A DNA stretch of 23,179 nucleotides, taken from UHGV virus genome UHGV-0124909; one strand, written 5' to 3'. Shown in pieces: positions 4,975-17,345 of this stretch. The notes below the pieces were generated by a model, which was not told the DNA's origin, made no database searches, and saw only the letters and a program-made list of their open reading frames with translations. Both the position numbers and the translations under genes were made by a program. Each line of letters starts with the position of its first letter. Position 1 is the first letter of the stretch. Source of the DNA: a virus.

Positions 4975-5076
4975 TCAATCGTAATAAGCTGGAATTGATT
5001 TTCCGCGTTGCTTCTGGCGACCAACACAAGTCACACCCATTTCACTGCGTGGCTTGCTGTAATAAATTCGGTTAGT
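4975..5076 (-). pseudogene. Relic 3' end of an N-antiterminator gene (N C-terminal fragment)
   Basis: Minus-strand frame reads TNRIYYSKPRSEMGVTCVGRQKQRGKSIPAYYD*, resembling the remembered lambda N C-terminus (...WYSKPGERGITCSGRQKIKGKSIPLI) and the C-terminus of the intact N here. No N-terminal part is present. Confidence 0.5.
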
Positions 5077-5446: not shown

Positions 5447-5752
5447 TCAATAAGCACCGTACGGTAGTTTACTGTACAATTTTATTTTTTGGACTGCATG
5501 TATTTTGTTTCCTAATGGGTTTGAATCTTTGTAATAAATACTTCTATTTTTTCGAACAACTTCTTCTTTCTTCTTGCAGCAAAGGATTCCTAGTGATGCT
5601 GCTTTGTCTGCTTTGACGCAACCAGAGAGCTTTAGCGCAATTTTTCGCGCCAGTGCTTCATTACTGCGTCGCTCGGCAATAAGTTCTGCTCTGCGAGCTT
5701 TGTAGCGGCTTTTTGCCGTACCTTTGGATTCTTTCCAGACAATGGTTACCAT
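5447..5752 (-). CDS. N: N-family transcription antiterminator (phage-21-type arginine-rich motif)
   Basis: Start MVTIVWKES with AGGAG RBS. N-terminal arginine-rich motif GTAKSRYKARRAELIAERR matches the remembered phage 21 N peptide. First gene of the PL operon, with nutL upstream. Confidence 0.75.
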   Translation of the reverse strand: MVTIVWKESKGTAKSRYKARRAELIAERRSNEALARKIALKLSGCVKADKAASLGILCCKKKEEVVRKNRSIYYKDSNPLGNKIHAVQKIKLYSKLPYGAY

Positions 5753-12484: not shown

Positions 12485-13127
12485 TGGCAGCAAATACCGA
12501 AATATTTGGGTAGTTGGCGATCTGCACGGATGCTACACGAACATGATGAAAAAACTGGAGACGATAGGATTCGACACCAAAAAAGACCTGCTTATCTCGG
12601 TTGGCGATTTGGTTGATCGCGGTACAGAGAACGTCGAATGTATGGAATTAATCACATTCCCCTGGTTCAGAGCTGTACGTGGAAACCATGAGCAAATGAT
12701 GATTGATGGCTTATCAGAGCGTGGAAACGTTAATCACTGGCTGCTTAATGGCGGTGGCTGGTTCTTTAATCTCGATTACGACAAAGAAATTCTGGCTAAA
12801 GCTCTTGCCCATAAAGCAGAAGAACTTCCGTTAATCATCGAACTGGTGAGCAAAGGTAAAAAATATGTCATCTGCCACGCCGATTATCCTTGTGACGAAT
12901 ACGAATTTGGAAAGCCAGTTGATCCTCAGCAGGTAATCTGGAACCGCGAACGAATCAGTAACTCACAAGACGGGATCGTGAAAGAAATCAAAGGCGCGGA
13001 CACGTTCATCTTTGGTCATACGCCAGCAGTGAAACCACTTAAATTTGCCAACCAAATGTATATCGATACCGGCGCAGTGTTCTGCGGAAACCTCACATTG
13101 ATTCAGGTACAGGGAGAAGGCGCATGA
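12462..13127 (+). CDS. Ser/Thr protein phosphatase (lambda PPase / NinI family)
   Basis: Metallophosphoesterase motifs GDLHGCY, GDLVDRG, GNHE; matches remembered lambda phosphatase; 23-nt overlap with ninH as in lambda. Confidence 0.8.
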
Positions 13128-13747
13128 GACTCGAAAGCGTAGCTAAATTTCATTCGCCAAAAAGCCCGATGATGAGCGACTCACCACGGGCCACGGCTTC
13201 TGACTCTCTTTCCGGTACTGATGTGATGGCTGCTATGGGGATGGCGCAATCACAAGCCGGATTCGGAATGGCTGCATTCTGCGGTAAGCATGAACTCAGC
13301 CAGAACGACAAACAAAAGGCTATCAACTATCTGATGCAATTTGCACACAAGGTATCGGGGAAATACCGTGGCGTGGCAAAGCTTGAAGGAAATACTAAGG
13401 CAAAGGTACTGCAAGTGCTCGCAACATTCGCTTATGCGGATTATTGCCGTAGTGCCGCTACGCCGGGCGCAAGGTGCAGAGATTGCCACGGTACAGGCCG
13501 TGCGGTAGATATAGCAAAAACAGAGCAGTGGGGGAGAGTTGTTGAGAAAGAGTGCGGAAGATGCAAAGGCGTCGGCTATTCCAGGATGCCAGCAAGCGCC
13601 GCATATCGCGCTGTAACGATGCTAATCCCAAACCTTACCCAACCCACCTGGTCACGCACTGTTAAGCCGCTGTATGACGCTCTGGTGGTGCAATGCCACA
13701 AAGAAGAGTCAATCGCAGACAACATTTTGAATGCGGTCACACGTTAG
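13124..13747 (+). CDS. Q: Late-gene antiterminator Q (lambda-type)
   Basis: 207-aa protein [19 protein letters not shown]... with zinc-finger cysteines (CRDCHGTG...CGRCKG); immediately upstream of the PR' promoter. Confidence 0.85.
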
Positions 13748-14180: not shown

Positions 14181-14504
14181 ATGAAGATGCCAGAAAAAAA
14201 TGACCTGTTAGCCGCCATTCTCGCGGCAAAGGAACAAGGCATCGGGGCAATCCTTGCGTTTGCAATGGCGTACCTTCGCGGCAGATATAATGGCGGTGCG
14301 TTTACAAAAACAGTAATCGACGCAACGATGTGCGCCATTATCGCCTGGTTCATTCGTGACCTTCTCGACTTCGCCGGACTAAGTAGCAATCTCGCTTATA
14401 TAACGAGCGTGTTCATCGGCTACATCGGTACTGACTCGATTGGTTCGCTTATCAAACGCTTCGCTGCTAAAAAAGCCGGAGTAGAAGATGGTGGAAATCA
14501 ATAA
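14181..14504 (+). CDS. S: Holin, lambda S type (class I), with dual start
   Basis: [22 protein letters not shown]... 107 aa; Met1-Lys2-Met3 dual-start motif preceded by a CCCC-TTATT-GGGGG hairpin. Confidence 0.85.
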
Positions 14505-14964
14505 TCAACGTAAGGCGTTCCTCGATATGCTGGCATGGTCAGAGGGAACTGATAACGGACGGCAGAAAACCAGAAATCATGGTTATGACGTCATTGTAGG
14601 AGGAGAGCTATTCACTGATTACTCCGATCACCCTCGCAAACTTGTCACGCTAAACCCCAAACTCAAATCAACAGCCGCCGGACGCTATCAGCTTCTTTCC
14701 CGTTGGTGGGATGCTTACCGTAAACAGCTTGGACTGAAAGATTTCTCTCCGAAAAGTCAGGACGCTGTAGCTCTGCAGCAGATTAAAGAGCGTGGTGCTT
14801 TACCGATGATTGACCGCGGCAGTATTCGTCAGGCAATCGACCGTTGCAGCAATATCTGGGCGTCGTTACCTGGTGCAGGTTACGGTCAGTATGAACATAA
14901 AATCGGTGACCTGATTGCCCGATTTAAAAAAGCTGGTGGGGTAGTAAATGAAGCTGAGATATAA
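14488..14964 (+). CDS. R: Endolysin, lambda R-type lytic transglycosylase (158 aa)
   Basis: [51 protein letters not shown]... catalytic Glu in the AWSEGT motif; overlaps the holin end. Confidence 0.9.
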
Positions 14965-15340
14965 GCTGGTTATTGTTGCCTTCGTTGTTACCGTCATTGG
15001 TTCCTTCATCTGGTCTGCTGGGCATTACTACAGCAAATATCAGCACGAAAAGGAGCGTGCTGATGAGGCTGTACGAAATGCTGAATCAGCAACTGCCATT
15101 ACCCGTAACGTTCTGCAATCACTGCAAATCATCAATACAGTTATAGAGGCTAACCAGCATGCAAAAGAGCAGATCGCACTGGACGCATCGGGAGCCTCGG
15201 CTGATATCCGGGTTGCTGTTGCGAATGATGATTGCACTAATCGCCCTGTCCCTGCTGGCGCAGTTAAGCGGCTGCAACAATTCGCGAACGGTCTACGTCA
15301 AAGTGCCGGTAGTCCCGTTACCGGCCAGCCTGACGGCTGA
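14948..15340 (+). CDS. Rz-like inner-membrane spanin (i-spanin)
   Basis: N-terminal TM helix LVIVAFVVTVIGSFIW followed by a charged helical region; follows the endolysin; contains the o-spanin start in another frame. Confidence 0.6.
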   Translation: MKLRYKLVIVAFVVTVIGSFIWSAGHYYSKYQHEKERADEAVRNAESATAITRNVLQSLQIINTVIEANQHAKEQIALDASGASADIRVAVANDDCTNRPVPAGAVKRLQQFANGLRQSAGSPVTGQPDG

Positions 15341-15482
15341 CACCCCGCAACCGGAAATCCCTGACAACCTGACGTGGGGCCAGAGCCTAGATTTAAACGT
15401 CAGTCTCCTATCAGCGCTTGGGCAGTGCAACCGGGATAAGGCAGATATTAGGCAAGCTGTAAAGAAACAAGCGGGCCAATAA
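15159..15482 (+). CDS. Rz1-like outer-membrane lipoprotein spanin (o-spanin), overlapped architecture
   Basis: Lipobox LAQLSGC followed by a Pro-rich mature region (VPVVPLPASLTADTPQPEIP); starts inside Rz in another frame and extends past it. True start may be the ATG at 15225. Confidence 0.5.
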   Translation: MQKSRSHWTHREPRLISGLLLRMMIALIALSLLAQLSGCNNSRTVYVKVPVVPLPASLTADTPQPEIPDNLTWGQSLDLNVSLLSALGQCNRDKADIRQAVKKQAGQ

Positions 15483-15509
15483 GCCCGCACTTATGGAGGA
15501 TTCAAAATG

Positions 15510-16190
15510 TTACAGAACCCACCACCTGATCGAATCTGTGGGTATGGTTGCAGCCTCGACATTCTGGATCATACCCAACTCGGTGGCCCTTCCCGGATCA
15601 ATGATGGTTGCAGAAGTGATCAAATTAGCCCAGTCAATTTGCTCATCTGGGGCTACAGCGAGAGCCTCGATATTCATCACCTGCACAAATCTTTGCAAGT
15701 CGTCATCCAGACATGCCGCCCATTCCCTAAGCCTGAGGTGATCTGCTTGTGGGGCGGCAAATCCCCAATGTAAAGGATGTAATAAAAATCGCGAGAGAGG
15801 ATTAGCAAACCGCTCAGATCCAGCCATGAAAATAACATTTGCTATAGATTCCACGTTACTAAGGTTATGTGTCTTCACCTTTACAGGAAGAGACTTAAGA
15901 AAGTTGTATGCGGTAAAACCTGCAACGGTATCTCCACCTTTACTAGAGATGTAAATCCTGATCTCAGAGGCTGGTTGGTTAGGGCTTGATATCGCTTTGA
16001 GGCAAACATCCATAAGGCTGGATACAGAAGCAACTGTCACATCTGTCATGAAGTGTACGGTATGGATCATTTCAGTTTCCCAGAGATATGCCGCAATTGG
16101 CATTTTCATAATGCACATAAAGTGAAAGGTTTTCTGCGTAAACCCGGATGAAATAATTTCATGAAGTAAGGCATTACAGAAGCCCTTCAT
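15510..16190 (-). CDS. ClpP-fold (S14-like) putative serine protease, moron gene
   Basis: IRIYISSKGGDTVAGFTAYNFL resembles the ClpP core motif IYLYINSPGG.V.AG.AIYD; candidate Ser in NVESIAN and His in LLHPLH. Opposite strand to the late operon and AT-rich. The first ATG lies in a hairpin loop with no RBS, so the real start may be downstream. Confidence 0.5.
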   Translation of the reverse strand: MKGFCNALLHEIISSGFTQKTFHFMCIMKMPIAAYLWETEMIHTVHFMTDVTVASVSSLMDVCLKAISSPNQPASEIRIYISSKGGDTVAGFTAYNFLKSLPVKVKTHNLSNVESIANVIFMAGSERFANPLSRFLLHPLHWGFAAPQADHLRLREWAACLDDDLQRFVQVMNIEALAVAPDEQIDWANLITSATIIDPGRATELGMIQNVEAATIPTDSIRWWVL

Positions 16191-16201
16191 TGAGGGGCTT
16201 C
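16179..16201. other. Stem-loop 1 (GAAGCCC-TTCATTGAG-GGGCTTC) covering the first ATG of the ClpP-like gene
   Basis: 7-bp perfect inverted repeat with a 9-nt loop; no T-run follows on either strand. Confidence 0.6.
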
Positions 16202-16373
16202 GATAATGAAACCGGAATTTATTCTGGGTAACCAGTTACGGCAGTACAGCGAAACAACCCAAGCCAGTAAGTGGGGAAATAACACTGGCAGCCACTGAAA
16301 GATGAACCTCCTGCCTTATGGCAAAAAAGATTCTTTGTGGTGGCGGACTGATGGAAAGACATCGGTTATTGCA

Positions 16374-16396
16374 GAGACCATTCAATGAGTGGTCTC
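16374..16396. other. Stem-loop 2 (GAGACCA-TTCAATGAG-TGGTCTC) in the moron intergenic gap
   Basis: 7-bp perfect inverted repeat with a 9-nt loop nearly identical to loop 1 but a different stem sequence. Confidence 0.6.
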
Positions 16397-16532
16397 GACA
16401 ATGGCTTATACCCTACACGGGATAACTTAACTGATATCCCCACAAGCGGATAAAGAGATTCTCAATGTCAGGAATCTACTTTTAGTCCTAGTAATGATGA
16501 ACTAGATATCAGCTGAGTCGCTTGGGTGGTGA

Positions 16533-16769
16533 TTACGATTCTGCTTCAAACTCAGAAATTAGTTGATGAACACGTTCAGTATATGATGGGTTAGAACCTA
16601 GAAACTCTTCCACTGTCTGAATGGTTTCATCACCCTCCCATTCAAAATGGCTCACAGGTGACGAATGACCAGCCCTGACTTGGTAGGAGCCATTGTCCAA
16701 TTTGTCCAGGAATATATAAGTTTCATTATCATGACCTGTATTTCGGTAAAAAATTTGCTTTGAGTTCAT
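16533..16769 (-). CDS. Hypothetical small acidic protein (78 aa), moron gene
   Basis: ORF with GAGGA RBS 8 nt upstream; AT-rich codon usage; same strand as the ClpP-like gene and divergent from the small terminase gene. Confidence 0.4.
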   Translation of the reverse strand: MNSKQIFYRNTGHDNETYIFLDKLDNGSYQVRAGHSSPVSHFEWEGDETIQTVEEFLGSNPSYTERVHQLISEFEAES

Positions 16770-16793
16770 TAAAGAAATCCTCTAGAGAAAACT

Positions 16794-17345
16794 ATGGCAC
16801 TCACCGACAAACAAGAGATGTTCTGTCGCGAGTACCTCATCGATTTAAACGCCACACAAGCGGCTATTCGGGCGGGGTACAGCGCAAAGACAGCTAACCG
16901 TACCGCATCCGAAAACATGTCAAAACCTGACATCCAATTCAGAATCGCCGAACTGAAAGCGCAACGCAATGATCTTGTTGGTATTAATGCAGAATATGTG
17001 CTTAATCGCCTTATTGAAATCGACCAGATGGATGTGCTCGACATTCTCCTGCAAAACGGTGAGCTAAAGCCCATTAAAGACTGGCCTAAGGTATGGCGCA
17101 CAACGCTATCAGGAATGGATGTCGTGGAGATGGTATCCGCAGATAGTGCTGCTCTCCTGAAGAAAATCAAATGGCCTGATAAGGTTAAAAACCTTGAGTT
17201 GCTTGGGCGTCATGTTTCTGTTCAGGCGTTTAAAGACAACGTCAAAAATGAAGTGACTGGCGCTGATGGAGGACCAGTCAGAACAGAAATTACCAACTTA
17301 ACGCCGGAGCAGGCTGCAGAGGCGTATAGAAAAATGATGGGCTAA
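16794..17345 (+). CDS. Terminase small subunit (P27 / Terminase_2 family)
   Basis: [34 protein letters not shown]... is the characteristic N-terminal HTH motif of this family; immediately precedes the large subunit. Confidence 0.8.

Follow-up and report, generated by a model that had tools for sequence, protein, structure and literature searches.

A covarying stem-loop family between the lysis and packaging genes of temperate phages of Enterobacterales

The virus genome UHGV-0124909 (23,179 nt, the whole of which is referred to here as the window) represents the late region of a lambdoid prophage and contains a gap of 342 nt between two open reading frames (ORFs), a ClpP-like one and one of 78 amino acids (aa). 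Does this gap hold a structured RNA and, if so, what would that RNA be doing there? According to the original prediction, a family of related stem-loops occupies the gap, which would encode a structured non-coding RNA (ncRNA) or a cis-regulatory leader. Our analysis revealed that two of these stem-loops, namely hairpin 1 (16170-16210, plus strand, "H1a" type) and hairpin 2 (16365-16405, plus strand, "H2" type), are members of one family. They form a conserved single-stranded structure with the polarity of the messenger RNA (mRNA), and the combination of conserved ends with stems that differ from each other and are yet complementary speaks against a double-stranded palindrome for protein binding.

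The two inverted repeats of 7 bp pair at the predicted positions, i.e., GAAGCCC (16179-16185) with GGGCTTC (16195-16201) in hairpin 1 and GAGACCA (16374-16380) with TGGTCTC (16390-16396) in hairpin 2. The 9-nt loops assigned to them (UUCAUUGAG and UUCAAUGAG) turned out to be mostly paired, as three extra pairs (U·G, U-A and C-G) leave a loop of 3 nt. In addition, the flanks CAUUACA/GAUAAUG of hairpin 1 and UAUUGCA/GACAAUG of hairpin 2 pair into a lower stem, which a 2x2 internal loop (CA/GA) separates from the upper one. Both hairpins therefore consist of a lower stem of 5-7 bp, the 2x2 internal loop, an upper stem of 10 bp with a conserved U·G and a 3-nt loop. The respective parts of hairpin 1 are the lower stem 16172-16176/16204-16208, the internal loop C16177 A16178/G16202 A16203, the upper stem 16179-16188/16192-16201 with the wobble U16186·G16194, and the loop 16189-16191. 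Those of hairpin 2 are the lower stem 16365-16371/16399-16405 (7 bp including two U·G), the internal loop C16372 A16373/G16397 A16398, the upper stem 16374-16383/16387-16396 with the wobble U16381·G16389, and the loop 16384-16386.

Folding of the 41-mers gave -21.0 kcal/mol for hairpin 1 (z = -5.6) and -22.0 kcal/mol for hairpin 2 (z = -6.9), with none of 200 shuffles as good in either case, and the minimum free energy (MFE) structures were identical to the structure of the family model. On the minus strand the folds reach -17 and -15 kcal/mol, which is 4-7 kcal/mol weaker, since the U·G pairs turn into C·A mismatches. The family model, a covariance model named R1, was built from a hand-collected seed of 13 sequences and comprises a lower stem CAUUA/UAAUG, the CA/GA internal loop, an upper stem of 10 bp with U·G third from the top, and a loop of 3-6 nt. 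It detects hairpin 1 with 60.4 bits (E = 1.7e-13) and hairpin 2 with 63.3 bits (E = 3e-14), while their minus strands score 17-23 bits; apart from these reverse strands, no further match below E = 1 was obtained in the 23-kb window. Two weaker hairpins had also been counted in the family, at 16456-16477 and 16487-16504. They are AT-rich inverted repeats of 5-6 bp without a match to R1 at E <= 10, filters off, and the region 16441-16540 shows no excess of structure over shuffles (z = -0.6 on the plus and -1.7 on the minus strand). The weaker hairpins are outside the family, which thus retains two of the predicted members in this gap.

The consensus of the family reads 5'-(G/A)(G/N)C AUUACA - 7 variable pairs - UUC ANY GAG - GAUAAUG-3'. 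Among lambdoid phages the common flanks and stem top are combined with stems of the types GAAGCCC/GGGCUUC, GCAGCCC/GGGCUGC and GAGRCCA/UGGYCUC, and further with AAGCCCA/UGGGCUU (UACG loop), AAAGCCA/UGGCUUU (6-nt loop), AAGCGUC/GGGCGCUU and GGAUGCA/UGCAUCC. In the seed, all cells of the 15 pairs are standard, nine of the 15 pairs have changed on both sides and the U·G is invariant. For the 77 distinct R1 sequences among the matches listed, 99.0% of the cells are paired, 153 cells are changed on both sides, again in nine of the 15 pairs, and none of 500 shuffles reaches the score. Each variable stem position of this set carries 3-5 pair types, whereas slid registers pair in 35-49% only. Approximately 13% of the cells are G·U, and such intermediates fit the plus strand only, as the other strand would have C·A mismatches. 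Individual phages exemplify these changes: the phiP27 copy is of the hairpin-1 type, found also in several genera of Enterobacterales, with a compensated A-U to C-G change, and the HK97, P22 and ST160 variants of hairpin 2 carry G·U intermediates and compensated changes. It had been proposed that the covariation identifies an RNA hairpin rather than a protein-binding DNA site, and this proposal is upheld by the 77 homologs. Furthermore, the comparison with homologous prophage loci, fixed beforehand as the refuting test, revealed that the hairpins are conserved there.

The distribution of the family was studied at two levels. In 100 lambdoid loci, R1 detected about 165 copies; the whole genomes of P22 and phiP27 yielded one copy each and that of HK97 two, without exception in the zone from lysis to terminase genes. 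When the lambdoid loci were searched with a regular expression, 170 of 171 copies were co-oriented with the late operon. The window segment 16163-16454 is 85-99% identical to a stretch that is unannotated or inconsistently annotated in about 200 phage records, including HK97 (38655-38931), HK022, mEp234, Kapi1, P22 (40180-40368), Sf6, HK620, epsilon34 and Stx2 phages. Among 5426 complete E. coli genomes, 2279 contain matches to parts of this segment, some of these matches being without a hairpin; the K-12 prophages DLP12 and Qin contain no copy. The conserved segment always lies between lysis and packaging genes, in the orientation of late transcription. One lambdoid contig of IMG/VR (L027) carries two hairpins (5005-5044 and 5626-5665) flanking a single ORF of 172 aa between the Q gene and the holin gene. 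This pair precedes the lysis cassette, so the family also occurs outside the gap between lysis and terminase genes.

Beyond lambdoid phages, one genome per species was scanned with a pattern in which only the flanks and UUC/GAG were specified and the pairing of the stem was left free. The outcome was bimodal, with at least 79 matches having 6-7 of 7 stem pairs and at least 42 having 0-4. The well-paired matches are almost all labeled Enterobacterales and cover more than 20 genera; among the matches listed are Serratia, Citrobacter, Enterobacter, Kluyvera, Leclercia, Raoultella, Klebsiella, Pectobacterium, Brenneria, Erwinia, Pantoea, Rahnella, Rouxiella, Yersinia, Kosakonia, Shimwellia, Atlantibacter and others. 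Three well-paired exceptions in that list are metagenome-assembled genomes (MAGs) labeled Bacillota (L170), Advenella (L183) and Chitinophaga (L203). The copies of the first two are of the enterobacterial type, and contamination is suspected for them. The poorly paired matches come almost entirely from unrelated phyla (one, L192, is from Xenorhabdus), as chance predicts.

Regarding the genomic setting, 64% of the cross-genus copies listed have the end of a same-strand ORF (50 codons or more) within 10 nt before AUUACA, compared with 5% of random positions. The spacing from stop codon to hairpin is usually 1-10 nt, with a mode of 1-4 nt in the cross-genus and lambdoid sets, and several other copies directly follow the T-run of an upstream terminator. 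Downstream, a same-strand ORF usually begins 5-150 nt after the hairpin. The neighboring genes are diverse, forming at least 38 clusters upstream and at least 43 downstream. Among the upstream genes are those for Rha, a protein with the Acb2/Tad1 hairpin domain (the largest cluster), Gp49/Sf6-gp66 and a Big_1 protein, and among the downstream genes are those for the small terminase subunit (terS), a phage metallopeptidase, DUF2560 (P22 orf80) and DUF2513. The context recurs in two respects only, namely a spanin or endolysin gene about 1 kb upstream (spanin in 36 of 78 loci among the matches listed, at a median of -0.9 kb) and terminase genes (terS, terL) 1-2 kb downstream. No single phage protein is present in the majority of loci, and the lysis and terminase genes that do recur are of varied families. 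The Acb2/Tad1 domain (PF24729, E = 4.7e-8 for a representative) belongs to a family of anti-CBASS/anti-Thoeris nucleotide sponges and was observed in L131, L133, L217, L232, L242, L247 and L250, i.e., in prophages of Serratia, Mangrovibacter and other Enterobacterales. Given that this gene is the commonest one directly upstream of the hairpin in the cross-genus set, the zone between lysis and terminase genes may be an anti-defense hotspot.

The type of stem is related to the upstream flank. The mean number of differences (of 14) was 2.1 for the upstream flank (29 pairs), 4.4 for the downstream flank (11 pairs) and 6.2 for the background; the hairpin appears to be inherited together with the upstream gene. 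Of the locus pairs with unrelated flanks, 17% still have nearly the same stem. The region is mosaic, and homology breakpoints coincide with the hairpin edges. P22-like phages are without hairpin 1, and phiP27, the cdtI phage and a Klebsiella phage have only the 40 nt of hairpin 1 in common with the window. In Stx2 phages, a stem-loop of the hairpin-1 type (H1b) is fused directly to the tail that follows hairpin 2; a hybrid of this kind in the Stx2a phage WGPS8 (L005:1498-1572) is joined exactly at GAUAAUG. It looks as if hairpin-to-hairpin recombination had deleted the segment between the two hairpins.

Which role do these observations suggest? The two roles originally offered do not agree well with the data, as a free-standing ncRNA would lack any promoter-like or terminator-like site and has no match in Rfam, and a leader of the two genes bordering the gap, described as morons, is contradicted by these being minus-strand insertions; a cis-acting element of the late mRNA fits better. 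We give about an even chance to the hairpin being such an intercistronic element, with a function in processing or stability and traveling with the upstream gene. In temperate phages of Enterobacterales, the element of about 41 nt would act as single-stranded RNA within the late transcript antiterminated by Q, and it would be a determinant of mRNA processing or stability between cistrons. It might block 3'-5' exonucleases and so protect the upstream cistron, or it might be cleaved by a double-strand-specific enzyme (RNase III-type) at the conserved CA/GA internal loop, and both options may be combined. In either case it would uncouple the fate of the accessory cistrons and the lysis segment from that of the mRNA for packaging and structural proteins. 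A factor, presumably of the host since no phage protein co-occurs throughout, would recognize the invariant flanks and the U·G wobble. As a by-product, a hairpin common to many phages would mark the joints of cassette exchange between them.

Hairpins cut by RNase III are among the closest parallels for an intercistronic processing element. At T7 R1.1-type sites, in the lambda N-leader and in sib, an RNase III-cut hairpin at the 3' end stabilizes the upstream message. The likeness concerns the location between cistrons, the arrangement of an upper and a lower stem with a conserved internal loop between them, the family resemblance among copies and the dependence on a host enzyme. RNase III makes staggered cuts in about two turns of double-stranded RNA, which an internal loop often interrupts, and the predicted structure (5-7 + 2 + 10 bp) is compatible with such a site. 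The present hairpins differ in having a shorter helix (17-19 bp-equivalents), a symmetric 2x2 loop and no sequence similarity, and they occur in 1-3 copies per phage within one operon zone.

A number of points weigh against a function in mRNA processing or stability. That function is purely inferred, and a predicted helix of 17-19 bp-equivalents is at the short end for RNase III. The conservation of the flanks (AUUACA/GAUAAUG) and of UUC..GAG exceeds what a simple exonuclease barrier would need; in the cross-genus set this conservation is partly imposed by the search pattern, and the alignments designated A3 and A4 were fitted to the model. Copies found by the model only do keep UUC/GAG and the flanks, with the variants AUC/GGG, AUUCCA and UGUAAUG. 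Wobbles of the G·T kind are tolerated in folded single-stranded DNA too. Co-orientation is also compatible with a role at the DNA level and is not strictly decisive, as the genes have a fixed order with respect to replication and packaging. Finally, the tight spacing to the stop codon could mean that the function is linked to translation.

The alternative that survives best, although we regard it as unlikely, is a DNA-level element for cassette boundaries or recombination, active through a one-strand fold or as a short linker, in the manner of integron attC sites, Xer/dif modules or the promoter-stem-loop (PeSL) cassettes of T4-type phages. It draws on the mosaic pattern described above: breakpoints at the hairpin edges, and the hairpin as an island amid unrelated flanks, occasionally with nearly the same stem. 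The units of gene and hairpin, in one orientation and up to three per phage, and the different small genes between the conserved core that follows hairpin 1 and the next hairpin are reminiscent of a cassette array, the stop codon directly adjoins the hairpin, and a hairpin moving with the upstream gene behaves like attC. A folded attC also resembles the layout of the hairpin, with a lower stem, an unpaired spacer, an upper stem and a variable loop. The similarity to attC and PeSL extends to tandem units in one orientation, conserved outer bases against a variable inner stem, linkage to the upstream gene and differing cassette content. However, an integron integrase, attC core motifs and the promoter component of PeSL are missing here. 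No IntI-type integrase or other recombinase co-occurs, an ORF of the integrase family being present in two of 62 downstream positions among the matches listed. The attC cores (RYYYAAC/GTTRRRY) and dif arms are absent; an identification as integron attC was accordingly rejected, the flanks AUUACA/GAUAAUG not being core sites. The longest contiguous conserved blocks measure 7-9 nt, which is poor for homologous recombination. The share of G·U cells and the strict co-orientation suit RNA better, and any element under strong selection would show breakpoints at its edges just as well if it lay in a mosaic region. A bolder version, to which we attach the same low probability, is that the hairpin is the signature of an unrecognized cassette system, similar to attC/PeSL and without a dedicated integrase, which would tag the 3' ends of accessory and anti-defense genes (Acb2/Tad1-like, Rha, Gp49 and others) in the late operon and control their expression and shuffling via a host or phage factor. 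If this were true, the hairpin would be a sequence beacon for new anti-defense genes.

A slightly less probable alternative links the hairpin to translation. A hairpin 1-10 nt past the stop codon would hinder the terminating ribosome, and it would attenuate the upstream gene or insulate or couple the cistrons. The very tight spacing speaks for this possibility, and the purine-rich 3' arm GAG(G/U)GG followed by GAUAAUG superficially looks like a sequestered ribosome-binding site. The latter reading was set aside, because the AUG of GAUAAUG serves as the start of the following ORF (60 codons or more) in just four of 62 loci among the matches listed. The tiny ORF starting at this AUG has 30 aa in the window and 9 codons in HK97 (manual translation), the peptides are not conserved, and the downstream genes have their own starts 5-150 nt further on. 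Moreover, hairpin 2 and its many copies follow the non-coding core and not an ORF, and some copies follow an intrinsic terminator instead of a stop codon. Repetitive extragenic palindromic (REP) elements and the bacterial interspersed mosaic elements (BIME) are transcribed and serve as mRNA stabilizers or translation attenuators, and a REP element reportedly attenuates upstream expression when the stop codon is no more than 15 nt away (Liang, Rudd and Deutscher 2015). They resemble the present family as imperfect palindromes of about 35-40 nt that are intergenic inside operons and near stop codons. An assignment to REP/BIME was rejected, though: there is no conserved GTAG (the upstream bases vary, and GTAG arises only from an upstream UAG stop), copies number 1-2 per phage genome and are not dispersed, and no RAYT transposase is associated.

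We consider it improbable that the gap gives rise to a discrete trans-acting or processed small RNA (sRNA) of about 235 nt, consisting of hairpin 1, the core and hairpin 2, the last being its protective 3' end. The segment 16163-16440 is strongly structured on the plus strand (-99.2 kcal/mol, z = -6.5), and the core between the hairpins (16238-16363) is non-coding and near-invariant in 115 distinct sequences, which could be taken as support. The z value comes almost entirely from the two hairpins, however; the core alone, with z = -1.9, is barely above shuffles, and RNAalifold on 102 distinct core sequences, in which there is too little variation for covariation to show, found no compensatory pairs for the MFE helices. 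A free-standing sRNA gene was further rejected by consensus scans of the plus strand at 15400-16900, which detected neither a terminator nor a sigma-70-like promoter site (3.1 of the latter being expected by chance). The hairpins, the core and the tail also occur independently of each other in other phages, which argues against a single unit.

The core is a module separate from the hairpins. Its start codons (16302, 16318) are missing in some copies, and it displays 1-nt indels and no codon periodicity. For such reasons the small ORFs of the gap (30, 28 and 35 aa) were dismissed as genes, with lost start codons and frameshifting indels. Positions 16258-16293 resemble the unpaired ends of the Rfam family Proteo-phage-1 (RF03044), a similarity that lends some weight to an sRNA. 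The score is 16.8 bits (E = 3.4), below the gathering threshold of 42, the alignment lacks the two internal hairpins of that family, and the assignment was not retained. With four exceptions, a family hairpin was found behind the core in the loci of the lambdoid set, at +9 to about +1300 nt. It is either immediately adjacent (+9, hairpin 2) or separated from the core by a small gene or two, in which case it lies at +112 to about +1300. Two lambdoid contigs of IMG/VR (L038:2722-2784 and L062:6828-6890) carry the int-alpA RNA (RF02996, 42-45 bits, above the gathering score) directly after the core and ahead of small cassette genes. Other orphan RNA motifs thus occur in the lysis-terminase zone as well, another point that could favor an sRNA. 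Like the present family, Proteo-phage-1 and int-alpA are orphan structured RNA motifs of proteobacterial prophages, but neither overlaps the hairpins.

The core is separated from hairpin 1 by a linker (16211-16237, plus strand) that is variable and absent in P22. Hairpin 2 is followed by a conserved tail (16406-16454, plus strand) with a small hairpin, GGGAUA...UAUCCC, at 16419-16440; the same tail is found behind H2, H3 and the hairpin of Stx2 phages, and homology with other phages stops at 16454. Small or 5'-extended ORFs have been annotated across the core and hairpin 2 in P22 (orf25, L004:1350-1427), phage Dewey (L002:1542-1761) and ST160 (Orf118, L007:1355-1711). These annotations are mutually inconsistent and probably artifacts.

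Several other identities were tried and rejected. No T-run follows either strong hairpin, as had been noted before, and an intrinsic terminator was excluded, the next sequences being GAUAAUGAAACC and GACAAUGGCUUA. Stem-loops are annotated, as "putative terminator" or "stem_loop", in the late operons of HK97, P22 and lambda after portal, coat and tail genes. These are likewise hairpins after gene ends, but they are terminator-like, occupy other positions and are not matched by R1. A promoter reading of ATTACA...GATAAT was rejected because the spacer is 22-26 nt, in agreement with the negative promoter scan. CRISPR repeats of types I-F and I-E, tRNA T-loops, boxB/put and dif were also dropped, since short words are common to them and to single variants only, not to the consensus. 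The covariance-model search recommended earlier, against Rfam 15, gave no match in the whole window at gathering thresholds and nothing on the hairpins at E <= 10 in a 1-kb search. The hairpin family is not marked in the annotated P22 and HK97 records, and no description of it was found in the literature, where an earlier mention in genome papers of subscription journals is possible. It would thus represent a new family among the intercistronic hairpins of phage operons.

Although hairpin 1 has the first ATG of the longest ClpP-like ORF at its top, we discount almost entirely that the hairpins are a regulatory leader or start-codon trap of the minus-strand morons, or chance inverted repeats, given that they are kept in hundreds of phages without both genes, that their minus-strand versions have C·A mismatches and 17-23 bits, that Pfam places the ClpP start about 70-90 nt further into the gene, and that chance is excluded by E values of about 1e-13 together with the covariation. 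The ATG in question (CAT at 16188-16190) literally sits in the loop of hairpin 1, as had been predicted; it is probably not the real start. The ClpP-like ORF (15510-16190, minus strand, PF00574) matches its Pfam profile partially (E = 7e-12), and since the match begins at residue 71 versus profile position 43 (residues 71-150 against positions 43-123), the true start is probably near M25-M30, at about 16103-16118. The longest ORF is thus probably too long by about 25-30 codons, which reach into the conserved hairpin 1, and the apparent sequestration of the start codon is most likely coincidental.

The layout of the window agrees with such a view of the two genes. The Q antiterminator gene (13124-13747, PF03589) and a holin/endolysin/spanin cassette (14181-15482) precede the gap, and the genes for the small and large terminase subunits and then the portal follow from 16794. 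The ClpP-like gene, including a clean terminator-like site detected by the terminator scan (15488-15471, minus strand), occupies 15471-16190 on the minus strand and has been inserted between Rz/Rz1 and hairpin 1. From about 16151-16163 onward the sequence is again homologous to other phages, and hairpin 1 with its flank matches phages without the ClpP-like gene. On the other side, a window-specific insertion of 335 bp (16455-16789), absent from the closest relatives, carries the minus-strand ORF of 78 aa (16533-16769) and, in its 3' region, the weaker hairpins. It has no DNA match in the phage collection, and its 78-aa ORF belongs to no Pfam family. On the minus strand, CUUUAU comes after the hairpin at 16456-16477, which may be a weak terminator of the 78-aa gene. 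In E. coli (L210) and Shimwellia (L180), terS is located about 62 nt after hairpin 2, so that 16455-16789 is lacking. The two minus-strand genes are later insertions flanking a conserved plus-strand stretch of the late operon, and the earlier description of the gap as tied to two moron genes had to be revised accordingly. In P22, the moron pid is found at the equivalent place after hairpin 2 (PMC8835761).

As regards annotation, the hairpin corrects spurious small ORFs, such as P22 orf25 and the tiny ORFs of Dewey, as well as the 5' extension of the ClpP-like gene, and its 41 nt would be a cheap marker for accessory and anti-defense loci, which phages keep in this zone. If the family is real, it constitutes a widespread structured RNA motif with strong covariation that is missing from Rfam and from the annotation of P22 and HK97. 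It could explain how cistrons within an antiterminated transcript of about 25 kb come to be expressed differently, and it could also explain why mosaic joints cluster at the junction of lysis and packaging genes.

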